64,000 nt of DNA from Escherichia coli (GTDB lineage Bacteria; Pseudomonadota; Gammaproteobacteria; Enterobacterales; Enterobacteriaceae): assembly GCA_025336685.1 (NCBI GenBank), contig GCA_025336685.1_4717.1; one strand, 5' to 3'. Below the pieces are notes generated by a model. The model was not told the origin of the DNA. It did not search any database and saw only the letters and a program-made list of their open reading frames with translations. Every line of letters begins with the position of its first letter. The stretch's first letter is position 1. Both the position numbers and the translations under genes were made by a program. Shown here piece by piece: positions 7,183 through 55,750 of this stretch.

Positions 7183-7200
7183 GGTAATATAAGCGTGAAT
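7183..7200 (-). promoter_or_regulatory. phage promoter, minus-strand core TATATTAC with extended consensus (attcacgCTTATATTACC)
   Basis: Plus-strand gtaatata at 7184-7191. One of five sites sharing ttcaSg-N-YTATATTACC with an A/T-rich upstream flank, all upstream of minus-strand genes. Core matches the early promoter element reported for phiKZ-like phages. Confidence 0.6.
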
Positions 7201-7330
7201 AATTTTGGATTCCAGCTGAGTTATCGCTCAGCATGCAAGGCATCCCGCCGAAGCGAGACACCTTGCACTAACGGAAAGTATTCGCGTTACCTTCTGAGTC
7301 TTCGATTCAGAATGCGAAGCTAAAGCATTA

Positions 7331-8119
7331 TTAGAACGCTAAGCCATCAAAGGCTACAGACGGATCATCGTCGTCATTTGCGCTTGGTGCATCCCAACGG
7401 GTATCAGGGGCAGCTGGGGCCGAACGTGATGCGTTAGAGTTACCGTTGTACTGGCCGTTACCAGCATTACGGTTACCGCCGCCGTTATTATTGTTGCGAT
7501 TATAGCTGTTGTTGCCATTACTTACGCTACGGCTCTCACCATCGAAATTGGTTGCGAGGATGCTTGGCAACACAGCACGATGGATGCGTACGAATTCCAA
7601 TGCACAAAGCGGAGAAACAACCCCGATCTGCAACGGTTGCCCAGACTCATCAACCAGAGAGTGGAAACGTGGTGGTTTGAATACGAACTGGATGTTTGGT
7701 TTCTGGTATGCTGTTACAGCGATGTATACCGAACCATCATCATTCTTACCAACCCATGTTGTACTTTCGGTAATCTGTTTCTTCTTACCTGGGTTATTGC
7801 GATCATCAATAACCTTTTCGTTCTTCATCGCAAAGCGTTGACCTGGTTTACCCTTAGCAACCTGCTCAAGGATCGCAAGCAGGTTGTAGAACGCGTATGA
7901 ACTCATGCGTGCCCAAATGCTTTCAGCGCGACCCTGCTGGTCTTTACGACCTGTATAAACCGTGATACGCGGTTGATTCTTAGCAACGCTAATTTTCAGT
8001 GAGGGGACCGAATTGCCACCCTCAACTTTTTCGTCCGCCCACAGTTTCCAGTTGTTGTCGTCGTAAGCCGTAGGAATAATGTTTCCTTGTGGTTTACTAC
8101 CCGAATTCCAATTGCTCAT
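7331..8119 (-). CDS. hypothetical protein with N/G-rich linker and acidic C-terminal tail (possible ssDNA-binding protein)
   Basis: C-terminus is NGNNSYNRNNNNGGGNRNAGNGQYNGN...DDDDPSVAFDGLAF, resembling the flexible linker plus acidic tip of SSB proteins; the N-terminal domain is not recognisably an OB fold by eye. Confidence 0.3.
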   Translation of the reverse strand: MSNWNSGSKPQGNIIPTAYDDNNWKLWADEKVEGGNSVPSLKISVAKNQPRITVYTGRKDQQGRAESIWARMSSYAFYNLLAILEQVAKGKPGQRFAMKNEKVIDDRNNPGKKKQITESTTWVGKNDDGSVYIAVTAYQKPNIQFVFKPPRFHSLVDESGQPLQIGVVSPLCALEFVRIHRAVLPSILATNFDGESRSVSNGNNSYNRNNNNGGGNRNAGNGQYNGNSNASRSAPAAPDTRWDAPSANDDDDPSVAFDGLAF

Positions 8120-8192
8120 TTTCAGCCTCGTTACGTAGTGTGCATCAATTTCTGGTTCAGATGATTGTCAATATTAGTTAAAAATTACAGCC

Positions 8193-9026
8193 TCAGCGGA
8201 ACATGTCCAACAGAAAACGTTTTGCGAAGGGGTCGCGTAACTGGTTGACACCAAAGCGTGTACGGTCTTCCGTTGTTAACGGATTCCACTGACTCTGTTT
8301 CGCAAGATCTAACAGCATCCTTTTTATTTTCACCGGTCCGCTGTTAAACTGTACGGCTTGGTCACCGAACGTTCCCAATGTCATCTTTGTAAATGGGAGG
8401 TTCGCAACCTCTGGACGATCCCCACCAGTAAGTTTGGTTGACCACTGATGTTTTCGTTTCAAAGTTCCGGTATGACTCTCTACCAAAATAAGTTCACCAA
8501 AACCGGTTCTTGCCAACAAGTCAGAAACATAGTGCGTGGTGATATACGATGTTTTGGTTATCGTGGGTAATTTACAATCCATCGATTCGATATTAGGGAG
8601 TCGATCTACAGACGCCATCAACCCACGATAAAGTGTAGCGAGTCCTTTTTGTTTTTCGGTATGTGGCTCCTTGTGTATAGCGTGCGGATAAACACGCTTT
8701 ATTGATGCATAGGTTGGCGCATATATCCGCAAACGAATATGGGGAACGAGTTCATTCACCAACTGCCTTAGCTGCAGCAACTCGTTTTGAAAATCCCCCG
8801 TTATCATCGATAATGGTAATTTATGTTGCTCGACGTCTTCAAAGCTTTCAACAAAATTGCGCGCTAAAGTACGCAGGTTGAACAACCAATCCATCGGTGT
8901 TTCTGGCTGTTGCTGTACTGCTGATAATGTTGCTGACGTCCCCACCGATAAAGGATAATCACCTAGCGTGCGGGCGTACATATCGCTCATACCCCACAAC
9001 TCCTTCTTATCATGGCAACGTATCAA
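8193..9026 (-). CDS. hypothetical protein (277 aa)
   Basis: ORF in the same-strand operon; no motif recognised. Confidence 0.5.
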   Translation of the reverse strand: MIRCHDKKELWGMSDMYARTLGDYPLSVGTSATLSAVQQQPETPMDWLFNLRTLARNFVESFEDVEQHKLPLSMITGDFQNELLQLRQLVNELVPHIRLRIYAPTYASIKRVYPHAIHKEPHTEKQKGLATLYRGLMASVDRLPNIESMDCKLPTITKTSYITTHYVSDLLARTGFGELILVESHTGTLKRKHQWSTKLTGGDRPEVANLPFTKMTLGTFGDQAVQFNSGPVKIKRMLLDLAKQSQWNPLTTEDRTRFGVNQLRDPFAKRFLLDMFR

Positions 9027-10152
9027 GCCAAGCAGAAACCTTTAAGGCATCAACGTTCGGGTATTTATTACGGATGCGTTCGACCAACAAACGCTTAACG
9101 TTGTCCTTTGTCAAGTCCCCACCCTTCTCGATAACGTTATTGACAAAACTGTTCTTTAATAGCGACTGGTTGTTCTTGGCATCCGTTTTAATTGACCAGA
9201 CAAAACCTGGATACAAAGAAGGGATAGAACGAAACGTTTTCGCTGCGTCGTCTTCCTTATCGCAGCGTATTCGAATATGATCGCCCTTCTTCAATGGAGC
9301 CAATTCCCGTTCCAACACACGGACAATTTCATCTCCAACAAGACCATGCAGTTTTATCGTCTTGTAGACATCTGCTTTCTTGTTCTCAACAAATTCCCAT
9401 TGGTCGTTAAACGATTCTGTTAACGTATAACGGAGGTACCCCTTTGGACCTTCTTCGCCATGCGACAAGCGACCGAACGAACCGCCAACCATGATACGTC
9501 CTTTCTGGGATTGTAAGTGAATATGTCCGCTCACAATCCATCCCTGGGTCTTCTCCACCATTGCGTTATACGCATCACTGCTATGAACACATGTCGCTTT
9601 TAACGCTTCTGGTGGAAGCTGATATTCGAACGCACCGTGCATCAGAATGAAGTCCGGCGATCCCTTCTCATCAATAAGTCGGTTCACGGCTGACAACGTC
9701 ACATCCGGGTCGTGGCTGTAGTTATCTGGAAGATAAAGTACTTTTAAACCAAAGTCTTCATCAACCATGCAGAGGTCATCGTAATAACGAACTTTCGCTC
9801 CTATCTCCATGACCTCGTTCTGCTCAACGAACCACTGGCTTTGCTTCTGGTCGTGTAAATTGGTACCCTCAAGAAAGATCAATGTAATATCGTGTTTTCT
9901 CGCATACCGTAACAACCAGGTACCCCAAGCACGAACAGCAACCACGTCACTCGTTACAAACGTCGTAATACGATCGAAGACATCACCACTGAACGTAATC
10001 ACGTCAAGCAGCGCAGGATCTTCTTTGGTGATGTAATAACGTAGCTGGTTAATCAGGTTTACTGTTGGTGTTTGACGATGGATAAAGTGAATATCCGACA
10101 AATTGATTCCACGTAATACCCCAGGCGTTTTATTTCGACTGAAGTCTCGCAT
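9010..10152 (-). CDS. calcineurin-like metallophosphoesterase (Mre11/SbcD-like nuclease candidate)
   Basis: Ordered phosphoesterase motifs: LSDIHF (D-x-H), GDVFD (GD), GTNLHD (GNHD-like), MHGAFEY, SGHIHLQ (GH-x-H). Confidence 0.6.
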   Translation of the reverse strand: MRDFSRNKTPGVLRGINLSDIHFIHRQTPTVNLINQLRYYITKEDPALLDVITFSGDVFDRITTFVTSDVVAVRAWGTWLLRYARKHDITLIFLEGTNLHDQKQSQWFVEQNEVMEIGAKVRYYDDLCMVDEDFGLKVLYLPDNYSHDPDVTLSAVNRLIDEKGSPDFILMHGAFEYQLPPEALKATCVHSSDAYNAMVEKTQGWIVSGHIHLQSQKGRIMVGGSFGRLSHGEEGPKGYLRYTLTESFNDQWEFVENKKADVYKTIKLHGLVGDEIVRVLERELAPLKKGDHIRIRCDKEDDAAKTFRSIPSLYPGFVWSIKTDAKNNQSLLKNSFVNNVIEKGGDLTKDNVKRLLVERIRNKYPNVDALKVSAWLDTLP

Positions 10153-10934
10153 CAGAATTCCTCTAAATCGCTGCTGCTAATAGTCCCCGTCGTAGACGAC
10201 ATGTTTCTACTGCTCGCCGACGCTGTTGTTGCGGATGTTCTGGCTAGATTCAATCCATTTAATAACCCGCGCTCTTTTACCGTACGACGCGAACCATCAC
10301 GAACATCGTAAAGAGGTACGTTGTAATGGTCAAAAATCCGAAGCCATTGCACGTAATCAGCAACAACATGGTCTTTGCTTTCATTCGGAGCAAAGCGATC
10401 GAGCTGATGGTCAACATACGCTTTTGCGCTTTCAGGATTGAAGTTATACTGTCGACGTGCTTTATCCACCATCGCGAGGAAACATGTGTTGGGGTCACGA
10501 TTGATGTATGAACGCGTCCGGATAAAGATAGCCGGTACCGTAAACAGAACCTTGTTGTTATTCCCGTCAGTGACAATATTAACGGCACGATGTGGCTGAC
10601 CTGCTATCTTACACCAATCATGGACAATGGTGCTATTACTCAACATCTCCGCGTATTCAGGATCCTGAGAAAACATTCCTGCGAACGGATACAAGAAATG
10701 TTTAACAAACAGCGATTCGGGCAGGATGTTGGGACGCGTCATCTCCTGTAAACCTTTTCGTAGAAGCTCGCTGTTGTCTACCAGCTCCTGCCACATGTCC
10801 GGTCGTGTTTTCGGGATGGACGGATCCTGAGCGCGACGAATGCGTTCTTCTTCATTTACAACCACTACCCCGGCCGGATACCCCAATAAATCCGTTCCTT
10901 CGCTAACGTTGCTGTTAGTTTGGTGCGCCTTCAT
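10152..10934 (-). CDS. hypothetical protein (260 aa)
   Basis: ORF abutting the phosphoesterase gene (start/stop overlap); no motif recognised. Confidence 0.5.
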   Translation of the reverse strand: MKAHQTNSNVSEGTDLLGYPAGVVVVNEEERIRRAQDPSIPKTRPDMWQELVDNSELLRKGLQEMTRPNILPESLFVKHFLYPFAGMFSQDPEYAEMLSNSTIVHDWCKIAGQPHRAVNIVTDGNNNKVLFTVPAIFIRTRSYINRDPNTCFLAMVDKARRQYNFNPESAKAYVDHQLDRFAPNESKDHVVADYVQWLRIFDHYNVPLYDVRDGSRRTVKERGLLNGLNLARTSATTASASSRNMSSTTGTISSSDLEEF

Positions 10935-11322
10935 TTACTTCCTCCTGCCACTTGACAAAATTACCACGCTCGGATCGCAGAACACCGCCCAAATCGTACG
11001 ATATACCTTTCTCTGTGACAATCCCGCCAATCTGGAGATCGACACGTTCCGTCGTCGGATCGATATACTTGACACGGACTTTCAATTCCACACGATCGTA
11101 ATAACGCATTAAATAATCATACAACATCCGGTATGTCGCATCTTCCAATTTGGGTGCGCTATACTGCGATGTTGCAATGAGGTACGGTAGTGAAACGATG
11201 GAACCTTGATAGCAATACGACTGGGAATGATTCGATATTGCGAAATTGGTCATTAACCCATCCAGCTTTTTTCCCGACGCGGTTAAAAAGCTCGACAGTC
11301 CAGGTAACGGATTCGATGCCAT
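10915..11322 (-). CDS. hypothetical protein (135 aa)
   Basis: ORF in operon context. Confidence 0.4.
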   Translation of the reverse strand: MASNPLPGLSSFLTASGKKLDGLMTNFAISNHSQSYCYQGSIVSLPYLIATSQYSAPKLEDATYRMLYDYLMRYYDRVELKVRVKYIDPTTERVDLQIGGIVTEKGISYDLGGVLRSERGNFVKWQEEVNEGAPN

Positions 11323-11335
11323 GAGGAACTCCTCT

Positions 11336-11785
11336 TTAAGCGTAATTCATTCCAACCAATCTATCGTAGTTAGGCATATGCCCTAACTTCAGTTCGATAG
11401 GCATGGATACGTTGGTGCGCGGTGCGTAAAATGTTCGCGTATGCATATCGATATACCCACAGTCCAAATAAACAATATCGGACAACTCTGCCGGATGTTT
11501 AGGTGTGGGAATCTTTAGTCGATTATAACACTCGAGCTGCCACCAGGCATGAAAAAAGTTATTGTAAGCGTACGATTTACTGTTGGCAACTTTAAGTCCG
11601 TAGACCACCCATAACGCCGCCATGAAGTTGGTTGCGTTAATTCGCATCGGTTGTTCATTATTGAGCATGTACGTGTAGGTAAACAAGGGCGTGTTACCAT
11701 CACCGAAACGTCCGACCAAGGTATTGTTTGTGCGTTCGACCTCAAAGGAAAAATGCTGGCTGCTATTACCATCAAAATGAATCAT
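11336..11785 (-). CDS. hypothetical protein (149 aa)
   Basis: ORF in operon context. Confidence 0.45.
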   Translation of the reverse strand: MIHFDGNSSQHFSFEVERTNNTLVGRFGDGNTPLFTYTYMLNNEQPMRINATNFMAALWVVYGLKVANSKSYAYNNFFHAWWQLECYNRLKIPTPKHPAELSDIVYLDCGYIDMHTRTFYAPRTNVSMPIELKLGHMPNYDRLVGMNYA

Positions 11786-11902
11786 TCTGTTCTCCCCAAG
11801 CTTTTCATTTCATAGAGTGGTGGAAATTCGTAGAAAGTTACAAAAATAAAAAGAATGGGTAGTCCCTCCCCACCCGAAGGTAGGGAGAGACCACAGATGT
11901 AT

Positions 11903-12367
11903 TTAAACCAATGCTGCGATAACGTCGTTAACATTACGACCACGCAACTCTGCCGCCAAACGAATAACTTCATCCAGGGAACGGTTTGTACGAATCTTAG
12001 CTACTTTCCAATTTTCAGGATACTGTTCGAAGTTAAGTAACCAAGTCATTACCTTTGCTTGTTCCACACCGTTGAGTTTGATTGTCGTGCGTGGATTGGC
12101 TTTGAACCACTTCTTGCTCAGCTGTGCCATACGGCGAACAGGGTAAGCGTAAGCGCGAGTCCAATCTTTGGACAGATTGTCGAGTAACTCACGGTAGCTG
12201 CTATCGTAGTCTTTGTTGATACGACGTAATAACCAGTTGGCGGTCATCTGATAGAGTTTATCATCTTCGCGTAACCGCATCCCTGCTACTGCTAAATAAA
12301 CGATAAGACCTGCACCCATGATGAGAGACAGGATAAACAGAACTTGGGTTTCTTGTGCTAAAGTCAT
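11903..12367 (-). CDS. hypothetical membrane-anchored protein (154 aa)
   Basis: N-terminal hydrophobic segment VLFILSLIMGAGLIVYLAVAG followed by a charged domain; first gene after a TATATTAC promoter. Confidence 0.5.
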   Translation of the reverse strand: MTLAQETQVLFILSLIMGAGLIVYLAVAGMRLREDDKLYQMTANWLLRRINKDYDSSYRELLDNLSKDWTRAYAYPVRRMAQLSKKWFKANPRTTIKLNGVEQAKVMTWLLNFEQYPENWKVAKIRTNRSLDEVIRLAAELRGRNVNDVIAALV

Positions 12368-12459
12368 TTTACTATCCTCGGATTTCGTTAGGATTTGATT
12401 TCCAATATAAGGACAATGTGATATGCCTTATACAGTCGATTGATGTTGTACATCACTTA

Positions 12460-12477
12460 AGTAATATAGCCGTGAAA
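12460..12477 (-). promoter_or_regulatory. phage promoter, minus-strand tttcacgGCTATATTACT
   Basis: Plus-strand gtaatata at 12461-12468, about 94 nt upstream of the 11903-12367 start; matches the extended consensus. Confidence 0.6.
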
Positions 12478-12486
12478 AATGTTGGA

Positions 12487-13302
12487 TTAACGTGTTCTCC
12501 TATCACGATGCGTATACGACTGAAGACCGATGTCCATATGCGGTAACGTCAGCGTCTGCCAGATCTGTCGTGCATAGCGATCGAGCGTATGATCGTCAGT
12601 AACACAATCGACCGGTTCGATGAGGTGCGTCGTATACTGGCTTTTCTCGGAGAAAGGTTCTATGTTAGCGGTGTCCCCTAATCCGCTTTTCACCGTGAAG
12701 ACGAGACGAGTAATTATCATCGCCTTATGCTGCTGTTCATTATAGCGAAGGCTACGATATACGGCATAGCTCCCCCCTTTTAAGCTTCGGGTATAACGAA
12801 GGTCGGAGGTCGTCTCGGAAATCTGATACAGCATCCAATCCAACGTATCTCGCCAGTACGCATCATCCACATCAGGAACCGTGATACCATAACGCGTAGG
12901 CAGCAGTTCTAAAAGCAATTTATAAAGTCCTCGACGCAGACCATGCTCTTCTGTTTCAGACAAACCGTGTCCAACGTAACGTGAGATACGCGTACGTAAA
13001 TACGTACGGATGAACATATTTGTCATCAGTGATTTCGCGCTACTACTGGTATCCTCAAAGCGATCAACACTGAAACTCGTTTCAATCGGCTGCCCATTAA
13101 AGTACAATGCGGCAACATACATCGCATTACTGCTATCTCGTTCAATGTTTAAACGCCCGCAGATATTGGCTGCGTCGTTCATGGTAAATTCTAACTTATC
13201 GTGTTCGATACGATAGATAATATCCTCTTGGGTTGCTAAGCTCGCAATGCGACGATAACCCGGAGAAGTGCGTTTTACACCCATGATTGTCCTCGTTTTC
13301 AA
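12487..13302 (-). CDS. hypothetical protein (271 aa)
   Basis: ORF; no motif recognised. Confidence 0.5.
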   Translation of the reverse strand: MKTRTIMGVKRTSPGYRRIASLATQEDIIYRIEHDKLEFTMNDAANICGRLNIERDSSNAMYVAALYFNGQPIETSFSVDRFEDTSSSAKSLMTNMFIRTYLRTRISRYVGHGLSETEEHGLRRGLYKLLLELLPTRYGITVPDVDDAYWRDTLDWMLYQISETTSDLRYTRSLKGGSYAVYRSLRYNEQQHKAMIITRLVFTVKSGLGDTANIEPFSEKSQYTTHLIEPVDCVTDDHTLDRYARQIWQTLTLPHMDIGLQSYTHRDRRTR

Positions 13303-13325
13303 TTTAAGATTACATGCAGCATAAA

Positions 13326-13350
13326 CCCTCCCCGCATAAGGCAGGGAGGG
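13326..13350. terminator. GC-rich stem-loop CCCTCCC-N11-GGGAGGG
   Basis: Inverted repeat between the 13366-14004 stop and the 12487-13302 start. Confidence 0.5.
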
Positions 13351-13365
13351 TAGCCATTGAATAGA

Positions 13366-14004: not shown

Positions 14005-14019
14005 TACAGGCGTCCTCCT

Positions 14020-14257
14020 TTAGCAATGGTTGTTAGTTGCTTCTATTTCATCAAGATACGGTTCTACGTCATCGCCCTCCACGAATTCGTTGAACCAACA
14101 GTCAATGGTAGAAATAACCGGTGACTGGTGTTCACATTTCTTAGATACCTTAAAAGGCACGTTATTATCCATCATACCGAGTTCGGGTCGAAAACGCCCG
14201 AAATGTTTCGCAGTCCAAATGTCTGGGACGATATGGTTGTTCATCGCGTCCCCATCG
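14020..14257 (-). CDS. RNA polymerase beta-prime-like subunit, exon 2 (begins DGDAMNNHIVP...)
   Basis: The reading frame of listed ORF 14020-14244 extends upstream to ...C GAT GGG GAC GCG ATG, encoding DGDAMNNHIVPD (cf. beta-prime NADFDGDQMAVHVP). Joining to exon 1 (ending ...GAC TT) restores NADF-DGD in frame. Confidence 0.7.
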
Positions 14258-15669
14258 CTTCAGTTTAATTTGGTCGAACGTATTCCAATTTCAATCCATG
14301 CCAATCACCGCCTTTACTAATAGCGGTACTTATCGTAGTCGGATGCACTTTATGTTCTTCAGCAAGGGCGAATCTATCAGGATAGACTTTATGTGTACCA
14401 TCCTCAAACACCACCTTTACTGGGAACCTTTGTAATCCACCAGTTTTTGGTCTAGGCTCTTTAGGAATATATTTACATTCGTTCACATCGCCAGGATAAT
14501 TCCTTGTCCACCATGCTTTCCAACCGTTTCTGGAAAACATCTTATCTCCATGACATAAGCTATGACTTAATGTCGCATAGCTCACTCCCACCATTGTTGC
14601 CGCCATTACGGTACTTTCCATGTGATACTTGTCTCCATCGGGCGATATTAAAACCAACCCGCCGTAAATAACATACGACTTACCGGCATCTTCGGATGTG
14701 AAACCGACAAATTCCATTCCGTGGGTAGCCGCATCGTAATATTTCATCAACGGCCATTGTCGTGTAGTACGGAACCATTTTGAAATCTGGGTGTGTGGGA
14801 TACCGTAACACTTAGCCGCATCGCGCATACTGTAATGTTCGGTTATCTCGCCAGTTCTCAAATCCTTTATCCATACTGTTTTAGCTTTCCAGTTCAAGCC
14901 CGTACGATAGGCATGGTACGTATTTTGGGATTGACTCGTCCATTCAAGATTATCCAAGCGGTTGTTATCTTTAACTCCGTCAAGATGGTTACCTACTAAC
15001 ATTGATCCCTCAGGCAGCATAGGTTTTTCACGAAAGGTGGATAAAACAACATGATGAGCTGCTATATCTCTACCTTCATGTCTGACCCTTACATATCCTA
15101 ATACGTTAGTTTTTCCTACTTCCTCTCCAGTATAGGCATCTATAATGACACCCTCCACAGAAGCGGCAAGTCCGGGATAATCTTTACAATGGTAAAATCC
15201 TGGGAATTTTGTCTCTCTAAGTTTCATCTTCTCTCCGCTATCGGCCAACAGAGAGAAAACGTTCCTCGGAGGCCGACGTTTTCAAATTAAACTACGTTAT
15301 CGACTATATCTTCATCCTCATTGCGAGGAGTCTCCCGTTTGGGTCTGTGTTTAACAGAGCCTACTCTACTCGACATCGCGTCTTTCGATAGTCTGTGAGC
15401 ACACATCTTAACGAACATTCGTGGACTCCTAAACAGGTGAACATTCTTGTTAAGATGCTTCGCTGCGGGTTATTCCCGTCCTACCTCTTTTACCATACCC
15501 AGTTCATTACGCTGGCCCTCATCTATGTCGCCACGATGAGTTGGTGTGTAGTCCGATTACAGAAACTTCCCGTCAATTAGAGAGTTTTAACTATGTTCCT
15601 GTTACCAGAAACCCGACTCCGATGATATCAATAAATCAACGTAAGTTATTGATTTAATTGAAGAAACTG
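14258..15669 (-). mobile_element. group I intron (about 1.4 kb) with HNH endonuclease ORF in its 3' part, interrupting the beta-prime-like gene
   Basis: Minus-strand core elements: P/Q-like GGACGGGAATAACCCGCAGCG (plus 15461-15482), R-like GCTCACAGACTATCG (plus 15386-15399), S-like AAGATATAGTCG (plus 15301-15312). The 5' exon ends in U, the intron ends in G, and splicing yields a perfect NADFDGD. Confidence 0.75.
14265..15248 (-). CDS. intron-encoded HNH homing endonuclease
   Basis: HNH motif HHVVLSTF...VGNHLDGVKDNNRLDNLEWTSQSQN plus helix-turn-helix-like repeats (YGIPHTQISKWF, MVGVSYATLSHSL); sits inside the intron; TTG start with an in-frame ATG 7 codons downstream. Confidence 0.85.
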   Translation of the reverse strand: MADSGEKMKLRETKFPGFYHCKDYPGLAASVEGVIIDAYTGEEVGKTNVLGYVRVRHEGRDIAAHHVVLSTFREKPMLPEGSMLVGNHLDGVKDNNRLDNLEWTSQSQNTYHAYRTGLNWKAKTVWIKDLRTGEITEHYSMRDAAKCYGIPHTQISKWFRTTRQWPLMKYYDAATHGMEFVGFTSEDAGKSYVIYGGLVLISPDGDKYHMESTVMAATMVGVSYATLSHSLCHGDKMFSRNGWKAWWTRNYPGDVNECKYIPKEPRPKTGGLQRFPVKVVFEDGTHKVYPDRFALAEEHKVHPTTISTAISKGGDWHGLKLEYVRPN

Positions 15670-16925
15670 AAGTCGGCATTGTATCCCTTAAGGATCATCA
15701 CGCTTAACCCGATGGTGTTATCCTGCGGATCGCGTTTAACCTTGGTGATTTCAAGACATTGGTTACTGCTTCGGTCAAGTGATGGGTTTCGAACAAAACC
15801 ACACACAATCCCATCGAACGGTGTATCGGCAATAAGCTCATCGTGTAGCTCGCTCATCATCGGGTGGTAATTACGGACATGTTCCGCAACGAACGCACGT
15901 GCTGCTCTTGGTGAATAACCACGATGGAATAACTTGGATTGGATGTGTTCTTTATTGGTTAATGTAAATGGCGCGTATGGGAAATGCAGATGATAATAAC
16001 GATGGTTCGCTGTTATCGAACTGATTACGGTACGCGTGGTGAATGGGTGTAATGTACCTAATATGTTTTTACGCGTGATACCTTTCTTCTTACCGATGAA
16101 CTCATCGAAAATCGCCGAGTGGTACTGCAGCAGCTTCAGTTGTACTTTCGCCATCCAGTTTTCTTTCTTTCTGGCGCTCAAAGGTGTTGTTGGGTGATAG
16201 ATACTATTCAATGTGCCGATAGCATCGATCGCACCTTCCATTTTGCTATCTGCATAACGGCCGGTCGGTGTATTTTCGATAACGAACATCATGGCCGCAG
16301 GAAAGCTGATATACTGGCTGAAGAACTTATCACGATGGATACGGATGAATTCTCGTAGCGTGTCAACTTTCTCTGTGTTCTTCGGTCCACGTAACGTAGG
16401 TCCTTTATACAAGATCTCCATGATGCGATCGAAGTTCTGTATAAAGCTATTTACGCCACGTCGTATCCCGAATACATCGAATTGCTGCTCCAGATAGTTC
16501 TTGAGTTCGATGGGTCGTTTTACATTTGGACGGTAACTGGCATCAATGAGCCACGTCATCGTTTCGAAGCTTTTGATATTCAACTCGCTTGCCAGCACGA
16601 GATGGACCAACGGGTTAATGAACGCATCGATTCCTTCAGGGACACGCGCCCAGACCGTCGAACGAATCTCCTGTTCTGCTGGGTAGGTCACAACCGTTTT
16701 ACAGTTTGGACACACCGTGCCGAGCAGCTCACCACGATTGTAAAAACCGCATCCACATTGCGGTGTGATATCCAACGTATCGCTGGAGTAAACACGGGTG
16801 ATAAAACTGTTTAATTTCTTCTTCTCTTCGACGACTTTTGTATCGTAATCGTTCAACAAAATCGGCGTAAAGGGAAGTTCTGCGAGCTGTCTATCGAAAC
16901 TCACGATATCGAGCATGATGGCCAT
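15670..16925 (-). CDS. RNA polymerase beta-prime-like subunit, exon 1 (zinc-finger N-terminus through NADF)
   Basis: CGCGFYNRGELLGTVCPNCKTVV matches the beta-prime zinc-binding motif (E. coli [23 protein letters not shown]); GKKKGITRKNILGTLHPFTTRTVIS matches [24 protein letters not shown]; the listed ORF ends ...KGYNADF followed by SFFN-stop, which is the start of the intron. Confidence 0.8.
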
Positions 16926-17017: not shown

Positions 17018-18913
17018 TTAGAACAGGTTGAATGCCCCACCCATGTTGTTACCGCCAACATTCGGACGATCGCTACGTGCATAGATGTTGCCGGAGATGT
17101 TACCCAGACCACGAGCACGTGCTGCTGTGTTACCACGAACAGCGGTACCTGCCAGATGCTGGATGTTCTCAGGACGGATGGTGAAGCCAGCTTCGGCAGC
17201 CGCTTCAATCAATGCCGCAAGCGCATTCGGTTCGAAATCGTAACGCATTGCCCAACCGGTTTGTTCCCAGCTACCAGACAGAACGCGATCGATGATTTCG
17301 TGACGAGCAACAACACGCTGAGACATCGACATATCGGTACGGTCGAAGCTGTCTTCCCAAGCTTCTACGGTATCCGGGTTAGTGATGTTCATCATGTACA
17401 GATCGTCCATATCACGAATATCGTGACGGTGGCCATCCTGGTGGTTGTAGTGACCCAGCGGGATACGGTTACCGGTAGCGTACACTAACGGCTGGCCGTA
17501 TTGATATTTCTTGCTGAAGCAACCCAGGGTGGTATCATCGAATGCACGATAGAGTGCTTTATAGCCTTCGGAGATTTCTTGAACTTTACCGTCAACGTTG
17601 CCCGTAAAGATCTTCTCAGCTGCAGGGATCATACGCAGCAACCAGCTATATTCACCTTCTTCCGGTACATCGATAGAAATCAGCAGAGACGGATACAGTA
17701 CCTGTTGCAGGAACTTGTAAATCTGCTCGTTGGTTTGAGTAGACAGATCCAGCGGTGCGGTAACTTCCGGATCCAGTACCATTGCCAGAGCACCCGGGTT
17801 ATGAGGACCGATGCCACGAGCAGCGTTGCTGATTAAAGACTGTGCCCACGCCATACCGCTGTTCAGCGTAGCGATGGTACCAATCAGACCTAACACGAAA
17901 GTGTTCGGAGTGAACGCATCCAGCTCCAGCGGGTAAGCGCTGGTCATCACGTAACGCGGCTGGTATTGTACAGTCGGCGGTACCGGATAACCGTTAACCA
18001 GAACAGGACCTTGGTTGAAGGTCGGGTTCTGCGGGCTGTAGGTCAGGTCAATGTAACCAGTGGTTGCGACCAGGCGCTGTTGACTATCGTAATCGCTCAT
18101 CGCTTGACGGATACGGTTAGAGATAGTTACAGTGATGTCAGAACGTACTGGGTTACCGACGATATCGCTGTCCTGCATACCGCTGGTGTTGTACTGAACG
18201 CTGCTGATCGGCTGATCGCTTGCCATCATGCCCAGGTTGAACTGCGGCAGGCCCAGTTTATCGCCGAGACGGATTTCGATCGCGGTTTGGATTGCGTTAT
18301 CTGCAGCAGACAACAGGGTGGTTGCCAGATGTGCAGATTCAGCGGTGATTTCATTGGTCACCACAGCCAGACCGGCGATACGAACAGTACCATTAGCCTT
18401 ACCACCAATAGCCGCATACATTGCCGCCATGACTTCGTTGATGAACGTGCCGTTCAGGTTATCAACCCAGGTACGTGGTACCAGAATGTTACCATGCGGA
18501 CCTTGTTCTTCACGACGCGGCAGCGGAGCCAAACCGGCAACCAGCGGAAGCACATAACCGAAGAAGTGGTTATGGTCACCAACTTTTGCACCGCTCATAA
18601 CAACCAGGGTCGGATACGGTACACTGTACTGGTTAGGATCGACGGTCACCATGATGAAGTCGTCTTTGAATCCTTTATCTTCCAGTTCTTTTTCCATCAG
18701 ACGGCGGAGATTCAGTACCTGCTCGGAGCCAGTATTACGGCTAATACGACGGCTCAGTGTACGGTTGATCGTACGCATCGTATGAGTTACTTTAGGCTGG
18801 CCAGCAAAATCTGCAGCGGTTTCCAGCGCCTCATCAGCACGTTGTGCGGTGCGGGTTTCAGCTGCACGAATTTCTACATTATCGTTACCGTTATTACGTA
18901 CGTCTAAGCCCAT
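17018..18913 (-). CDS. chmA: candidate phage nucleus shell protein (chimallin-like), 631 aa; alternative: major virion protein
   Basis: Size typical of chimallin; stand-alone gene bracketed by a TATATTAC promoter (73 nt upstream) and a strong hairpin; flexible N-terminal region and G/N-rich C-terminal tail ending ...GGNNMGGAFNLF; PhuZ present in the same genome. No direct sequence confirmation. Confidence 0.4.
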   Translation of the reverse strand: MGLDVRNNGNDNVEIRAAETRTAQRADEALETAADFAGQPKVTHTMRTINRTLSRRISRNTGSEQVLNLRRLMEKELEDKGFKDDFIMVTVDPNQYSVPYPTLVVMSGAKVGDHNHFFGYVLPLVAGLAPLPRREEQGPHGNILVPRTWVDNLNGTFINEVMAAMYAAIGGKANGTVRIAGLAVVTNEITAESAHLATTLLSAADNAIQTAIEIRLGDKLGLPQFNLGMMASDQPISSVQYNTSGMQDSDIVGNPVRSDITVTISNRIRQAMSDYDSQQRLVATTGYIDLTYSPQNPTFNQGPVLVNGYPVPPTVQYQPRYVMTSAYPLELDAFTPNTFVLGLIGTIATLNSGMAWAQSLISNAARGIGPHNPGALAMVLDPEVTAPLDLSTQTNEQIYKFLQQVLYPSLLISIDVPEEGEYSWLLRMIPAAEKIFTGNVDGKVQEISEGYKALYRAFDDTTLGCFSKKYQYGQPLVYATGNRIPLGHYNHQDGHRHDIRDMDDLYMMNITNPDTVEAWEDSFDRTDMSMSQRVVARHEIIDRVLSGSWEQTGWAMRYDFEPNALAALIEAAAEAGFTIRPENIQHLAGTAVRGNTAARARGLGNISGNIYARSDRPNVGGNNMGGAFNLF

Positions 18914-18984
18914 TTGGGATTCCTCTTTTCTTAACCTTTATTAAATGACGTCATTGAATCAGCTTCTACTCGCTCATTCACCTA

Positions 18985-19002
18985 GGTAATATAACCCTGA
19001 AA
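18985..19002 (-). promoter_or_regulatory. phage promoter, minus-strand tttcaggGTTATATTACC
   Basis: Plus-strand gtaatata at 18986-18993, about 73 nt upstream of the 17018-18913 start; matches the extended consensus. Confidence 0.6.
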
Positions 19003-19167
19003 TTTTTTTCAATATTGGTGTAACCGCATTGAACGATATAAACCCCTAGGCGAACGCTGCCGAGAAGCAACATTCTTTCTACATATAATCAGGATATGTC
19101 TGTAAACTTTTACTTCTCTTATTGAGAGTAATGTCATATCCGTTTACCATCTTCTTACGGAGTTCGT

Positions 19168-26258: not shown

Positions 26259-26558
26259 TCATTTTCTCCCTCTTCGAATACCACCGATACCTCTTCGATC
26301 CAAGACGTCCCAAGCACGCTTTATTTCTTCCTCCCGTTCCTGATTCCAATCGTTAAATCGTTTTCTTATTTTATCCCACCACTCTCCCATGCTTTCTCCT
26401 ACACGGCATAAAAGCCTGCCCCGAAGGACAGGCTCGATAGAACTTAATAACCATCCAATTTCAATGAAGGATGGTTGACGATATGTGCGTGTTTTGCTGG
26501 GTCGTATGGTTGATATGGAAAATAACCATGCCACTGACGACCTTGGCATTTCGTACAT
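26259..26558 (-). CDS. hypothetical small protein (99 aa)
   Basis: ORF; overlaps 26444-26644, so only one of the two may be real. Confidence 0.25.
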   Translation of the reverse strand: MYEMPRSSVAWLFSISTIRPSKTRTYRQPSFIEIGWLLSSIEPVLRGRLLCRVGESMGEWWDKIRKRFNDWNQEREEEIKRAWDVLDRRGIGGIRRGRK

Positions 26559-32288: not shown

Positions 32289-32872
32289 GGGACATAAACC
32301 TCCATCAACATCGCATAAAGCGCACCAAGCCCATGCAGGACTCGGTCAGGTGCAAAGGTTGGTGTGTAACATACTTGTTCGGTTGGTGCTTGTTGACGTA
32401 AGTCTAACGGGTCTCCGTTGATAAGCATCTGCAGGAGATCAACATCATCTTGCAATGTATCCTCATCGATGTATGCATCAACAAAAAGCAATCGGTGTAA
32501 CTGTTCCGGTTTAATTGAGATACCTACAACCATGCAGTTGTTGTAGGTGGCGTTGTCCAGAAAGAAGTGAATGACACCCGCTTGTGGATCGCCGTTGTAA
32601 TGCAGCCATCGCGTAAAGCCAGCCGACATCATCCACAGCGGATTGTGTTGTAGCGCACTGACGACGCGGGTCTCGAATTCCAAACCGAACTTCTGGAAGA
32701 TTGCGCCCATCTGGAAACGATCTTCATCGAGACGGTAACGGAATATACAAGCATCCGATCCCGTTGAGTTGTCGTACACCGAAAGATACCCACGATGGAT
32801 TTCCACGGTAACATTGTTGTCGTCAAGCGTGGCGCTCGCAACACCGTTAGAAAAGGTTGGAACAAAGCTCAT
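32273..32872 (-). CDS. hypothetical protein (199 aa)
   Basis: ORF. Confidence 0.5.
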   Translation of the reverse strand: MSFVPTFSNGVASATLDDNNVTVEIHRGYLSVYDNSTGSDACIFRYRLDEDRFQMGAIFQKFGLEFETRVVSALQHNPLWMMSAGFTRWLHYNGDPQAGVIHFFLDNATYNNCMVVGISIKPEQLHRLLFVDAYIDEDTLQDDVDLLQMLINGDPLDLRQQAPTEQVCYTPTFAPDRVLHGLGALYAMLMEVYVPCFKN

Positions 32873-33420
32873 CTTGTAATCCTTAATTTACCTGAATGAA
32901 TTATCGTTGATGGGTCTACGACGCGACCGTATTTCGCATTGCGTAATACACGATGCCCGAAGAAGTCCGCGGTTTCCAAAACAACCGTGTAACAACCCAG
33001 CTGATGTTGGTGTCCCCAAAACCGTTCAATGGGGATCCAGCATGGCGTCATGCCTTTGTGTCGCCAATCCGTAACACAGCCGAATTCAGCAAACTGTTCA
33101 GTAAACCACTCGTCAATATCGGTATCCGTAAAGAGAAACACGTGGTTTTTAACCAGATAAGCGAACCCTGGATAAAAAAGCTGAGGGTCATCCGGGTCAC
33201 GAAGGTAAACACGAAGTTTGTCTAGCGTACCCTCGATAACGATCGTATCGGGTAATCCCGGCGGTGTGAACCGAAGTTGGAAGTTATCCTCGTTTGCCGA
33301 GGCGTTAACCAAATACCCCAATTGAAGGGGTCGATGCAATTCGAAAAGGTTAAACGTTAATGCATATTCGATATACTCTAATCCTATATTCATGTCTGAC
33401 CTATGTGGTATGGACGGCAT
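32869..33420 (-). CDS. hypothetical protein (183 aa)
   Basis: ORF; 4-nt start/stop overlap with the downstream gene. Confidence 0.5.
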   Translation of the reverse strand: MPSIPHRSDMNIGLEYIEYALTFNLFELHRPLQLGYLVNASANEDNFQLRFTPPGLPDTIVIEGTLDKLRVYLRDPDDPQLFYPGFAYLVKNHVFLFTDTDIDEWFTEQFAEFGCVTDWRHKGMTPCWIPIERFWGHQHQLGCYTVVLETADFFGHRVLRNAKYGRVVDPSTIIHSGKLRITR

Positions 33421-33525
33421 TGCATTGCCTTCCGCGAGTGTAATCAGGAAGGTAATGTAGGTTTATTTTAATCTCCATTTCGCGATGATATGACAGTCTT
33501 TATTACGTTTACCATCTGAGGGAGC

Positions 33526-47147: not shown

Positions 47148-47627
47148 TCAGTCTTTCAACAGCTCGGCTGCATACGCACTGATGTTGTCGCGAATATGCT
47201 TAACCTGAGTTGTCGGGAAAGATTTCTTATACGCGGTGGTCAGACGTCCGTAAACCTGTTTCTTCTCGTTAGAGCCGAAACCAACTTCAGCGCTACGTTG
47301 AACTGTTGCAGACACAACGTCTTTGCCCAGCGGCAGCGTCACAGAAACAACGTCAACCTGCTTGTTATCCGCCATGAACTGCGCGCCAACACGGCCAACC
47401 GCCAGACCGTGAGCCAGACCGATATCGGTGGTCAGTTTCTGTGCTTTTTCCAGGATTTCTTTTTCTTCCGGCGTTACCAGAGTACCCAGGAAATCACTGC
47501 CCAGCTTCTGGCTACCTGATTCGTCCAGTTTGAGGCCAGCGGCGATTTTATCAGAAAGGGCCTGAACTTCCGGACGTACGTTAGAAGTGGTTTCAGTTGC
47601 TACGGTGGTTTCTACAGCTTCAGACAT
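47148..47627 (-). CDS. hypothetical protein (159 aa)
   Basis: ORF downstream of a TATATTAC promoter. Confidence 0.5.
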   Translation of the reverse strand: MSEAVETTVATETTSNVRPEVQALSDKIAAGLKLDESGSQKLGSDFLGTLVTPEEKEILEKAQKLTTDIGLAHGLAVGRVGAQFMADNKQVDVVSVTLPLGKDVVSATVQRSAEVGFGSNEKKQVYGRLTTAYKKSFPTTQVKHIRDNISAYAAELLKD

Positions 47628-47749
47628 GTTAATACTCCAATTAGTTTTTTCGATCGATCAAAAGGATAAAATCAGAAGATTCTTTCTTCATAGGGAAAAC
47701 ACAAGTCGGTTAAGGTTTACTTCTTAAACTCCTTGCGTTCTATCAGTTA

Positions 47750-47767
47750 GGTAATATAGACCTCAAC
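47750..47767 (-). promoter_or_regulatory. phage promoter, minus-strand gttgaggTCTATATTACC
   Basis: Plus-strand gtaatata at 47751-47758; matches the extended consensus. Confidence 0.6.
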
Positions 47768-48560
47768 TTTTTTCCAATAATGCCGCAACGTTCCGCGCGA
47801 AACGAATAACTTTGTAATTGCGGGTTTGTTTGACATCTTCTCCATCACTATCATCTTCGGACGGATCTTCCCACATGAAGTCTTGTTCGTCCGCTTTCTG
47901 TAAGTAGTGGTATAACTGCACCATGCTGCGTGCGGTTGGAGAGATAGCGCGAAGTTCGTCTAAATCTTCATCGGTAAGCAGAACATGCGGTGAACGCAGT
48001 GGTTCCATTGCCGTATTACACAGCAGACGAATAAGCAGATCGACACACGGAATAACGGAACTTGGTGAGGCGATTTCTGGGTGTAGTGTATAACCCCAGT
48101 ACACGCTGTTAAAATAGGCCAATACCGCAGGTAGTGAAGGATGTTCCATCACACGACCAATTTGCTGTCTTACAATAGATGCACGATCGTTCAGTACATC
48201 GAGAGTAATTTGTTGCGGTTCCATAACAGCGAGTGACATACCGTACGCATCGGCTACGCCAAGGATTTCATGAAGAGCCGAACGCTCTTCTTCTGCGGAT
48301 GTTGTCCCGATCGCTTTACGTCCAGCAAGTTCGATTAGCATCGGTGAAACAGTTTCTTTAACCTCGTTTAAAGAAGCCTGGTAAGCATGTTTGTGAAGGT
48401 ACAGTGTCCACGCTAATGCGCGCTCAGCTGCATGAAGCAGATCGACATAAGACTGTTCTTGATAGCATGGTCCGTACACGCTCACCGCAAGCTTGGTGGC
48501 TTTCTCGGAAGCTTGCATAATAGCATCAGGTGATTTAGGCATATCGCGTTCTTCTTGCAT
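47763..48560 (-). CDS. hypothetical protein (265 aa)
   Basis: ORF. Confidence 0.5.
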   Translation of the reverse strand: MQEERDMPKSPDAIMQASEKATKLAVSVYGPCYQEQSYVDLLHAAERALAWTLYLHKHAYQASLNEVKETVSPMLIELAGRKAIGTTSAEEERSALHEILGVADAYGMSLAVMEPQQITLDVLNDRASIVRQQIGRVMEHPSLPAVLAYFNSVYWGYTLHPEIASPSSVIPCVDLLIRLLCNTAMEPLRSPHVLLTDEDLDELRAISPTARSMVQLYHYLQKADEQDFMWEDPSEDDSDGEDVKQTRNYKVIRFARNVAALLEKS

Positions 48561-48663
48561 CTTTTAAATTCCTACTTAACAATAAAGTTTATATACGGCG
48601 TATGTATCCGTAGAATAATGAGTTCTGGTAAGATCTTACATCAAAATGACGGCATAAAAAGTA

Positions 48664-49651: not shown

Positions 49652-49729
49652 AACCCCTTTATAAGCAACTGAATGAAAAACGTTACCTTCCCGCTTTTTA
49701 TATCAAGAAGGCGACACGTAAGCGTTATA

Positions 49730-50461: not shown

Positions 50462-50462
50462 A

Positions 50463-52697: not shown

Positions 52698-52930
52698 TAC
52701 TGCGCTCCCTCCAACGCATTACTACCTACGGGTTCTTTGGTTTCCAGACGGCTGTTTAAGCGTGCAGCAACCGCATCTTCCAATCCCAACGGCATAACCT
52801 TTTTGTTCACGTCAGGATCGGCGGCATCATTACCAACGGTTTGACGTACGACCTCAGCAACCAACGTTACCGCGTTCGTCAGCGCAACAAAGCTCGCTGC
52901 CCGAGCCGTGTTAAGTTGTTCTTGGTTCAT
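52697..52930 (-). CDS. hypothetical small protein (77 aa)
   Basis: ORF. Confidence 0.35.
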   Translation of the reverse strand: MNQEQLNTARAASFVALTNAVTLVAEVVRQTVGNDAADPDVNKKVMPLGLEDAVAARLNSRLETKEPVGSNALEGAQ

Positions 52931-53006
52931 TCACTTTTCCTTTTAATGTCAGAGCATCGCATTCTTGACGTACGTCAAGAAGGTACTGCGTTCAGCGAAA
53001 TAAACG

Positions 53007-53030
53007 AGCAGGGGCATGAAGCCCCCTGCT
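53007..53030. terminator. hairpin AGCAGGGG-loop-CCCCTGCT with T-rich flanks
   Basis: Inverted repeat immediately after the 53032-54255 stop. Confidence 0.5.
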
Positions 53031-53031
53031 C

Positions 53032-54255
53032 TTATTTAGCGTCGTTAAAGTAAATATCAACAGCTCGTTCCGTTGCGTAGAGGAGACCAAGATTCACAGT
53101 CCCAACCACTTCCGGTGAACCGATGATACGGTTAGCGATACTGGTGCCACTGAAGATAGCATCAAGGGTGTGCCCGTCTTCGGTTTTGTTCACACCATGA
53201 CCCACGGAAGAGACAACGGATTTCGCTTGTGCTGCGAAGGTACCCTTATCACCCATCCCCGCACCAAGGTCGTAACGCATGAAAATACGGATGGCGATCT
53301 GGTTCTCGCCTAACGGATTACCGTCTATTCTCACGTTACTGTTGTTGATACGCCCCGTCGTTGCTTCATTGAGTTTCAGTTCCTTGACGCGTTTAGCTCG
53401 CGCTTTATCTGCGTCACCGACGAGCGCCGCCATGGTTTCACTCATATCCTCAATCTGAGCGCGGTACAGCACATCGATCTGTACAACTTCACCATGAACG
53501 TCAGCACGTGGGTTATACTGACTCATACGACGTAATGCTTCAACGGCTTCCTGACTCTCATCACTCAGATCAGTTGCGATCGGTTCTTCCAGTGTTGCAA
53601 GAATAGTTCGAGGTTCAACATGATCGCCGATTTTTACGAGACCACGAATGTTGAGATGGGCGTCAACAATGAGCGTGCGGCTCTTAATCGATGGTGTTAC
53701 GAGACGATCGGCAAGATTGTCGAAGATATACGAACTGTCCTCGTGAGTCTCTGGAATATCCAGAATACCGACAAGAGACAGAACACCTGCGCGCCAAACA
53801 ACCTGACCTGGGTTCCACCAGTCGCGTTTAAAATAAAGACGATGGAAAACTACCACATCTTGATCCTTAACGCGATCCCCAACTTTATAATCGGTAATGA
53901 GGTCATGCGGATAATACTTACCTGGTCCTTTCCCGATTATCGTACCGAGTTGGAAAACCTCTTCTCCTAACTCTGGATCATCGTATTGTATCGTAAGCGC
54001 AGTTTTGGTGACCTTCTTCACAACACCATCGCCTTGGGCGGCAGCTGCGAAGAGTTTACCAACGCGATGCGCGATAACGGTCTCGCCACCAGTACGCCAT
54101 GGTTGTACATCGTAACCTTCAGCAGCAATCATGCGGTTGTGTTGGATGCCTATAAATACGAGACGCTTTGGCGGAATCCAGCAAAATACATTTACTGTGC
54201 GTCCGGATTGTTCAGATAAGGTCGTTAATCTTATCCCGGAGGCGATGATAGGCAC
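53032..54255 (-). CDS. RNA polymerase beta-like subunit, middle segment (probable 3' exon)
   Basis: [23 protein letters not shown] resembles beta [40 protein letters not shown]...[13 protein letters not shown] resembles GDKMAGRHGNKGVIS...GVPSRMNIGQILE. The listed start is GTG, and the frame stays open a few codons upstream, consistent with an exon. Confidence 0.6.
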   Translation of the reverse strand: [407 protein letters not shown]

Positions 54256-54483
54256 ACCGCCTCCCGCTTACGCTCTCACGTAAGAGCAGACTATATCACA
54301 TCTCGTCTTAGGCTTGTTTTCACAAGTCAAACGGTGCTTCTTCAGCACCTCAACGAGAGTTCACTTCTTCCCAGCGCATCCAGCGCCATTCTCTTATCCA
54401 AGGAGAATGCCTCACTCGAGGGGTACAGGGGGATGAATCCCTTAGTCGTTGAACCGTCACCCTAGAACGTTTCACAACGATCC

Positions 54484-55695
54484 TTAGGCGATTGGCTGCG
54501 GATTACCCTTGGCCTGCGGACCACGAACTTTTGTCGCGGTCAACTCTTCATTTTTAAAGCCTGCTTTACGAGCAATACGTCTCGCTTCTCGCACGTCTAA
54601 CGTTTCCGTTTCCGCTTTGGCTGAAGGCAGCATTGGGCGTCCTCGCAATTCAATGAATCTCGTCCATACGTCACCGTATAAACGGACCCGCTCTTTGTAA
54701 ACAGAATAGTAAATATAACGTTTTCCGTCAGGGAATTTAGTCATCCCATCGGACTTCAAACGGTAATTGAGTAACGTAGTAGATATACCCATTTCTTCGG
54801 CGCAATCAACGGCTGAAAGGTACAATAGCGGTACATCATTTTCAGGAATGACGACAATAGCACGTTTGTTGGTTGTCTTCTCCAACTCCAGGATACTATC
54901 TTCGACTTCCCGCCACGGCGTCTCATCAGTAACCCATTTAACTTGATAACAGCCATTAACGACAGGTTGGTTCTTGTCGTTAACGTACATCGACGCAGTG
55001 GGTAACTTAACACCAATGTGATTAGCGAATTCAGTCAATGATTCGAAAAGATGAATCTCTTTTGTTATCGTTGACCTTGCAATCACGCCCTTACTCCCCG
55101 TATCCGTCAACGTTGCTAACTCGTATTTGGTAGGAATACGCCACGGTTCATCGCCGTAATCTTTGCGGTACTGCTTACGTTCAGGAAACGCTCGCTGTTT
55201 ACCTCTATAGACACGATGATGAATGAAGTCGATATTCACACCAAGATCGCGTGCCGCTTCCGTCATGGATGGATATCTAGTTACAACACCGGTGTCAACA
55301 TCACGAACCTGAATAGGTTTACCGTAAGCAGCAATAGAACGTTTACGCATGTTCATAATGCGGGCATGCTGATTGTTCTCTTTCTGTGTAACCCATTCAA
55401 GATTGTCATTCTCTGTGTTACCGTCGGGATCAAGGTAGTTATTAAGTCTGTTGCCGTCCTTGTGGTTCACATGGAGCAAATGCGCATCATCGATGTTACG
55501 GAACGTTAACATTAGAAGTCTATGCATGGAACGGTAAACCAATGTTCCATCGTGACCTCGAAACGAATAACGATAATACCCAGCAATGATGATGGGCAAA
55601 TATTCAAACTTCGATTCCTTGTTACGCAATGTTCCATCTATGGATATCTCCAGGAACGGGAATTCCGGTACGGTCTTAAATACCTTCTCACTCAT
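54484..55695 (-). CDS. HNH homing endonuclease (intron-associated)
   Basis: HNH motif HRLLMLTF...HVNHKDGNRLNNYLDPDGNTENDNLEWVTQKENNQHA; helix-turn-helix-like repeats; located between the two beta-like segments. Confidence 0.85.
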   Translation of the reverse strand: MSEKVFKTVPEFPFLEISIDGTLRNKESKFEYLPIIIAGYYRYSFRGHDGTLVYRSMHRLLMLTFRNIDDAHLLHVNHKDGNRLNNYLDPDGNTENDNLEWVTQKENNQHARIMNMRKRSIAAYGKPIQVRDVDTGVVTRYPSMTEAARDLGVNIDFIHHRVYRGKQRAFPERKQYRKDYGDEPWRIPTKYELATLTDTGSKGVIARSTITKEIHLFESLTEFANHIGVKLPTASMYVNDKNQPVVNGCYQVKWVTDETPWREVEDSILELEKTTNKRAIVVIPENDVPLLYLSAVDCAEEMGISTTLLNYRLKSDGMTKFPDGKRYIYYSVYKERVRLYGDVWTRFIELRGRPMLPSAKAETETLDVREARRIARKAGFKNEELTATKVRGPQAKGNPQPIA

Positions 55696-55735
55696 TGACT
55701 ATATTCCTCTTGTGCAGTGATATTAACTACACTTT

Positions 55736-55750
55736 CGTAATATAGCCTTA
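55736..55750 (-). promoter_or_regulatory. phage promoter, minus-strand attaaggCTATATTACG, inside the putative intron upstream of the HNH ORF
   Basis: Plus-strand gtaatata at 55737-55744, about 42 nt upstream of the HNH start. Confidence 0.55.

Follow-up and report, generated by a model that had tools for sequence, protein, structure and literature searches.

Putative phiKZ-type early promoters ahead of the chimallin gene and other gene runs in a Goslar-like jumbo phage of Escherichia coli

According to a review, an AT-rich motif near -10 is detectable by bioinformatics in every jumbo phage that encodes RNA polymerases (RNAPs), and wherever it has been tested it was confirmed as an early promoter (PMC7598289). 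In phiKZ the early promoters, which are served by the virion-packaged multisubunit RNAP (vRNAP), comprise 28-32 AT-rich sites on one strand (Ceyssens 2014, cited in PMC8244752; PMC10914365); their motif combines an extended -10 box with a T-rich motif upstream of -19, and a primary start site carrying the early-promoter motif has been mapped for gp054 (PHIKZ054) (PMC8244752). Early promoters of Bacillus phage AR9 read TATATTAT-(6N)-G+1 or AAATATATATTAT-(6N)-G+1, and phiKZ and phiR1-37 start transcription 6 nt downstream of their early element (PMC5312081). Here we describe a set of sites built around the octamer TATATTAC in a 64,000-nt stretch of DNA deposited as Escherichia coli (assembly GCA_025336685.1, contig GCA_025336685.1_4717.1; hereafter the window), which closely resembles Goslar, a nucleus-forming jumbo phage (Chimalliviridae) of E. 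coli with two phage RNAPs. An earlier note on this DNA, made from the sequence alone, had pointed to the octamer. We find that the sites are very probably early promoters of the phiKZ type, read by vRNAP.

The relationship to Goslar is close throughout. A 6-kb piece of the window gave a single match in a phage collection, Escherichia phage vB_EcoM_Goslar, at 95.6% identity, and by blastn the full window aligns to Goslar positions 153,639-218,641 at ~95% identity, a few insertions and deletions aside. Two IMG/VR contigs are 95-97% identical to the window, which is identical to none of the genomes compared. Genes for chimallin, PhuZ, terminase, tail sheath and several RNAP subunits lie in this region. 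Among the last are homologues of gp205 and gp207, which belong to the vRNAP set found by mass spectrometry of the Goslar virion (gp78, gp196, gp205, gp207 and gp210). A PDB sequence search with the gp207 homologue as query returned zero matches.

Placement and flanks of the core octamer

An exact search of the window located TATATTAC at 7184, 12461, 18986, 47751 and 55737, 5/5 on the minus strand, and found no copy on the plus strand. This is the distribution that the earlier note had reported, and its aligned flanks also agree with the window sequence. The 3′ ends of the five cores lie 96, 94, 73, 124 and 42 nt, respectively, from the ATG that follows; these distances fall within the 40-125 nt upstream of minus-strand genes stated previously. 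The description of the sites as intergenic stands for the cores, all five of which are non-coding, but not for the extended motif described below, which enters the preceding coding sequence at 47751 and 12461. Because the core lies only 5 nt (47751) or 19 nt (12461) past a stop codon, the upstream part of the motif overlaps the end of the preceding gene; at 47751, where the stop codon is at 47763, the overlap takes in the upstream half of the site. The plus-strand tail sheath gene in the window has no site. The genes below the different sites are unrelated to each other as judged by Pfam and PHROGs.

The raw count of the octamer is within chance (5 observed against 2.04 expected, with at least 5 in 8/100 shuffles), and its one-mismatch variants are unenriched in the window (51 against 56.9 expected). 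The case therefore rests on placement and flanks. Non-coding DNA makes up 8.4% of the window and holds all five cores (binomial p = 4e-6), a value that is valid as a directed test only and would fail correction over all 8-mers. When strand-specific 8-mers were ranked by non-coding enrichment in the window, TATATTAC came first. Equal frequency inside coding regions had been named at the outset as a finding that would speak against promoters; the 5/5 non-coding cores show a different picture. Exact matching is blind to a core variant, TACATTAC, which is present at four strong Goslar sites outside the region shared with the window and at one weak site within the window, 33452.

The full Goslar genome contains ten exact TATATTAC cores, 10/10 on the minus strand, and a long consensus is common to eight of them. 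Two of the ten lie inside coding sequence and lack conserved flanks, and the other 8/10 are in non-coding DNA. A matrix built from the sites added four strong Goslar sites in which the same flanks surround the core TACATTAC (15060, 43259, 49725 and 86698). This brings the strong sites to 12 (8 with TATATTAC and 4 with TACATTAC; core TAYATTAC), 12/12 on the minus strand, each ahead of a minus-strand gene at a distance of 32-159 nt, with one of them, 49725, falling within the small annotated open reading frame (ORF) gp047. Real strong sites score 24-54 bits, while the maximum in shuffled sequence is ~8 bits.

The information profile of 9 sites revealed conserved elements beyond the core. The consensus, aAT-N-sAAAA-N-TTTCAsGGy-TAYATTAC-yTAnGT-GA, describes an element of ~36 nt in which an AAT/A-rich tract occupies roughly -35 to -26, TTTCAsGGy occupies -23 to -15, the core TA(T/C)ATTAC extends from -14 to -7, and T(-1)G(+1)A marks the predicted start. 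A T-G step follows the core by 6-7 nt at every site, the G being the seventh base.

As a non-circular control, we omitted the core columns and trained a flank-only matrix on the 8 Goslar sites that are non-orthologous to the window. Among 127,922 window positions, the four top ranks went to 12461, 18986, 47751 and 7184, in that order; 33452 ranked 51 and 55737 ranked 358. Over 145 aligned bases, the four promoter spans that the window shares with Goslar show a single substitution, which falls at a degenerate position. Compared with 4.0% across all non-coding DNA, this is a weak deficit of substitutions. The chmA site is invariant in four Goslar-like genomes, which are 95-98% identical and in which the chmA intergenic region as a whole is almost invariant.

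We also considered a dyad, TTCAC-N15-GTGAA, around the core as the mark of a dimeric binding protein. It was rejected: its arms show no compensating changes, and the symmetry is absent in phiKZ.

Comparison with phiKZ and other genera

The earlier note had likened the core to the early promoter element of phiKZ-like phages, and the phiKZ sequence bears this out. In bases 1-50,000, taken directly from the genome sequence, TATATTAC occurs 7 times, always on the plus strand, and each copy immediately precedes a plus-strand gene; one of these genes is the chimallin gene gp054, for which the early start has been mapped (PMC8244752). The Goslar-trained matrix gave 8 plus-strand and 0 minus-strand matches in the same bases, with the best upstream of gp054. 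The two lineages share the core, an A/T-rich tract upstream, a T-G step 6-7 nt downstream and the confinement of sites to one strand, ahead of genes. At the chimallin gene the sites can be aligned directly: aaaaaaatttgagattTATATTACtaaattGA at phiKZ 45568 and aaaaaaatttcagggtTATATTACctaggtGA in the window are near-identical and occupy the same position. The lineages differ in that Goslar sites carry TTTCAsGGy from -23 to -15, where phiKZ has TTTAAACAG or AGAT, and in that Goslar tolerates TACATTAC as a core. Fewer sites were also detected in Goslar, ~12 per 237 kb, where bases 1-50,000 of phiKZ hold 7-8.

Likeness extends to AR9, in the TATATTA(Y) core, the 6-nt spacer and the initiating G. AR9 differs in that its DNA contains uracil, its AT core is longer and its flanks are of another sequence; nor does it belong to the Goslar type of chimallivirus.

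We scanned both strands of 4.5-4.7 kb chmA loci from other genera with the Goslar-trained matrix. Chimallins from other genera are only ~24% identical to that of the window, yet in Klebsiella phage Eowyn (20 bits), Ralstonia phage RSL2 (19 bits), Erwinia phage RAY (35 bits), Pseudomonas phage PhiPA3 (14 bits) and Pseudomonas phage Noxifer (21 bits) the best match of each locus lay 72-158 nt upstream of chmA. The core is TATATCAC in PhiPA3 and Noxifer. In phiKZ, RAY, Eowyn and RSL2, the core TATATTAC, the A/T tract and the T-G step 6-7 nt downstream all stand ahead of chmA. The matrix scan found no TATATTAC-type match upstream of chmA in Xanthomonas phage LucasX, and the core is therefore non-universal in the family. 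About 92 nt upstream of the LucasX gene, aaaaacatttcgaaccCTTACTATCC stands in place of a TATATTAC-type element, which suggests, from sequence comparison, that it may be a diverged vRNAP promoter core of that lineage.

These comparisons bear on whether the sites could have arisen by chance or duplication and play no part in regulation, for instance as remnants of duplicated gene cassettes. The unremarkable raw count of the 8-mer would fit that idea, as would the near-identical 30-nt upstream stretch shared by Goslar sites 2560 and 166062. It is nevertheless contradicted by the placement of the sites, their single-strand bias and the flank ranking. Duplication also sits poorly with the lack of relatedness among the genes below different sites, and with the occurrence of the same element ahead of chmA in genera so far apart in chimallin sequence. 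We regard this explanation as very improbable.

The probable reader of the sites

Published Goslar data provide an expression context for two of the gene runs. RNA-seq by Armbruster et al. detected 175 genes at 5 min (PMC10541120). Knockdown of ChmA arrests infection at the vesicle stage, where transcription was ascribed by the authors to the injected vRNAP; the knockdown transcriptome is that of early infection, with normal levels of chmA, picA and chmC and strongly reduced capsid, portal and tail sheath transcripts (PMC10541120). The chimallin gene had been predicted as early in the earlier note, in agreement with these data, and the candidate itself was identified as chimallin by Pfam and PHROGs (Table 1). 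It lies directly below site 18986, and the early-expressed chmC belongs to the gene run below 12461. Promoters are absent from this study (PMC10541120), from the original Goslar paper and from another E. coli jumbo-phage paper, and a full-text literature search for TATATTAC returned unrelated papers only.

Our interpretation combines two kinds of evidence. Our own analysis established the motif, its bias in strand and position and its cross-genus conservation, and published work supplies the early expression of chmA and chmC; from these we infer that vRNAP recognizes the sites, where exactly transcription starts, how long the transcripts are and that the copy in the insertion is active. The element is a known promoter class in its Goslar-lineage version and not a new kind of system. 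According to the proposed mechanism, the five subunits of vRNAP (gp78, gp196, gp205, gp207 and gp210) would be injected along with the DNA, and the enzyme would transcribe inside the early infection vesicle independently of host sigma factors and of newly made protein. The polymerase would recognize the ~36-nt element without host factors, start at the G seven bases past the core (7177, 12454, 18979, 47744 and 55730) and run leftward on the minus strand through co-oriented genes. Among the runs served in this way would be chmA together with a gene for a subunit of the non-virion RNAP (nvRNAP), another run with chmC at its end, and two whose genes have no known function.

At 7/14 independent sites in Goslar and the window the predicted transcript opens with a local hairpin in which pairing begins at +1, compared with 13% of random positions and 24% of random positions starting with G. 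Since the peak is broad, with offsets from -4 to 0, this is weak, suggestive support for the start position.

Several observations weigh against reading the sites as vRNAP promoters. Published start-site evidence for Goslar-like phages stops at a 91-nt region upstream of chmA, drawn from the 5-min data, with the motif inside it (PMC10541120). The 12-13 sites are few for 175 genes at 5 min, which implies very long transcripts or further promoter classes. Within-clade footprinting has low power, because intergenic DNA of the Goslar-like phages is near-invariant (97% column identity). The upstream flanks of site 55737 are poor; both it and 33452 may be inactive, given that one off-consensus base killed a predicted AR9 early promoter (PMC5312081). 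Finally, through its TTACC stretch the core is similar to AAanTTACc, the middle-promoter motif of phiKZ.

This last resemblance raises the question of whether the sites are middle-class promoters read by a form of the nvRNAP, in which case TTACC would represent AAanTTACc near -24 and transcription would start ~20 nt further downstream. Middle promoters of phiKZ do carry AAanTTACc or AAAATTACC at about -24 (PMC4666361), 3/5 window sites read TATATTACC, and phiKZ gp054 has middle as well as early start sites (PMC8244752). The centre of the middle motif, AAanTTACc/TACT, lies between about -22 and -24, and some middle promoters have a TATG-type start. Middle motifs in phiKZ are found on both strands, however (PMC8244752), whereas the 12 Goslar sites and the 8 phiKZ matrix matches are one-stranded. 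Conservation spans the full TATATTAC and a T-G step fixed at the sixth base past the core, which is early architecture, and there is no conserved TATG ~20 nt downstream of the sites. Moreover, both chmA and chmC have transcripts in the vesicle stage, for which the authors invoke vRNAP (PMC10541120). We consider middle-class promoters improbable, and recognition by vRNAP remains the preferred explanation.

Host sigma-70 promoters, with TATATT as the -10 box and E. coli RNAP acting at the start of infection, are still less credible, and we reject them. TATATT does agree with TATAAT at 5/6 positions, and a TTGAAA-like hexamer precedes it at some sites. Yet a sigma-70 consensus scan called 0/5 sites, and sigma-70-like matches were below shuffle expectation (14 against 21.8, and 12 against 16.1). 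At the chmA site the TTGAAA-TATATT spacing is 13 nt where 16-18 is required, and the conserved sequence includes the AC after the hexamer and the fixed downstream T-G step. Infection of the phiKZ type is also independent of host RNAP, and after injection the Goslar genome shares an enclosing vesicle with vRNAP.

The site in the mobile insertion, surrounding features and significance

Site 55737 differs from the others in its setting. It lies 43 nt inside a 1.6-kb insertion that interrupts the gp207 homologue, a vRNAP subunit gene, and the start codon of an HNH gene follows 42 nt downstream (Table 1). The core and the T-G step are exact, and the upstream flanks are weak. The insertion matches the full-length Rfam group I intron model (RF00028) at 49.4 bits, just short of the gathering score of 50, with E = 5e-11. 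A 27-nt stretch at the site recurs in one other viral contig only, the Goslar-like IMGVR_UViG_3300011560_000001.

The earlier note had listed the intron HNH gene among the predicted early genes. Its early expression is plausible as a prediction, and its site has the weakest flanks of the set. We put forward, tentatively, that the HNH intron in a vRNAP subunit gene carries its own early promoter of the vRNAP type. The endonuclease would then be made in the vesicle stage, before the nucleus forms, and homing would be timed to co-infection with intron-less relatives; the divergent flanks may reflect import from another chimallivirus lineage.

There are precedents for such an arrangement. Homing-endonuclease genes within introns of phage T4 have their own promoters, distinct from those of the host gene. 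The site described here is similar in that the homing endonuclease ORF of a putative group I intron has its own, predicted, promoter. It differs in that T4 relies on the RNAP of the host, joined by middle and late factors of the phage, whereas the predicted reader here is an injected phage polymerase, and in that the host gene of the intron encodes a subunit of that same polymerase. A closer parallel is found in AR9, where the intron of g189, a vRNAP subunit gene, holds an early promoter and the early gene g190 (PMC5312081), an arrangement that parallels site 55737 in the putative intron of the gp207 homologue. If our proposal is true, the intron-borne promoter would be the chimallivirus counterpart of AR9 g189/g190.

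Table 1. Predicted promoters and associated features of the window. Sites are named in the text by the lowest coordinate of the core.
Feature	Coordinates	Strand	Details
Predicted early promoter	7177..7212	minus	core TATATTAC 7191..7184; predicted +1 G 7177; flank rank 4
gp175 homologue	5502..7088		below site 7184; followed by gp174 and gp173 homologues
Predicted early promoter	12454..12489	minus	core 12468..12461; predicted +1 G 12454; 53 bits; flank rank 1
gp182 homologue	11903..12367		below site 12461; co-oriented run continues to ChmC homologue
ChmC (gp176) homologue	7331..8119		ends the gene run below site 12461
Predicted chmA early promoter	18979..19014	minus	core 18993..18986; predicted +1 G 18979; 66-nt leader; 50 bits; flank rank 2
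chmA (chimallin, nuclear shell protein)	17018..18913	minus	first gene below site 18986; Pfam PF25677 6.8e-28; PHROG nuclear shell protein
nvRNAP beta' subunit gene	15654..16925		after chmA; PHROG RNAP beta subunit
Predicted early promoter	47744..47779	minus	core 47758..47751; predicted +1 G 47744; 42 bits; flank rank 3
gp214 homologue	47148..47627		below site 47751; followed by gp215 and gp216 homologues
Weak candidate promoter	33445..33480	minus	variant core TACATTAC 33459..33452; T-G step at the sixth base past the core; 13 bits
Candidate early promoter in mobile insertion	55730..55765	minus	core 55744..55737; predicted +1 G 55730; flank rank 358
1.6-kb insertion in gp207 homologue (vRNAP subunit)	54170..55787	minus	absent from Goslar (blastn)
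HNH/NUMOD1 endonuclease ORF	54484..55695		inside the insertion; Pfam, PHROGs
Predicted group I intron core	54267..54709		inside the insertion; Rfam Intron_gpI RF00028

The chmA and nvRNAP beta' genes correspond to Goslar gp246 and gp247. Candidate 33452, which lies 32 nt upstream of a gp225 homologue (32869..33420) and is without the TTTCACGGC upstream element, is identical in Goslar. At site 7184, the window carries a 38-nt insertion relative to Goslar (within 7140-7183) directly after the core, spanning the predicted start and retaining the T-G step at the sixth base. The insertion carries an inverted repeat, CTCTATGA-N5-TCATAGAG, followed by GCGAC; Goslar site 226688 is followed by a similar CTTCATGA-N6-TCATGAAG and GCGAC.

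The window and Goslar differ in mobile-element content. At window position 59164, a 2-kb Goslar intron with the gp206 HNH gene is absent; at 14247-15296 the HNH gene is a different one, after a group I intron at 15281-15660. At 26334 the window lacks 188 nt that are present in Goslar.

A family of conserved GC-rich minus-strand hairpins, for example CCCTCCTCC-TTCCCTTACGGGTT-GGAGGAGGG, was seen at window positions 2539, 13343, 16967, 20299 and 46066 (AGGGARGG on the plus strand). It has 21 copies in Goslar, several of them annotated as terminators, and the hairpins of the family sit at the ends of gene runs. Their k-mers are the most non-coding-enriched of the Goslar genome. The stem is mostly followed by T(T)ATG instead of a long T run, and the recurring TATG resembles the phiKZ late-promoter motif.

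Our results extend known biology and bring no conceptual change. Goslar is the E. coli model for nucleus-forming phages, and for Goslar-like phages the analysis gives a usable early-promoter consensus, aAT-N-sAAAA-N-TTTCAsGGy-TAYATTAC-yTAnGT-G(+1), together with predicted starts. These could be applied in delimiting early operons and in building early expression cassettes in Goslar, for which the phiKZ consensus early promoter provides a precedent. The specificity of vRNAP for its promoters, in particular ahead of the chimallin gene, would have been kept across genera whose chimallins share only ~24% identity.

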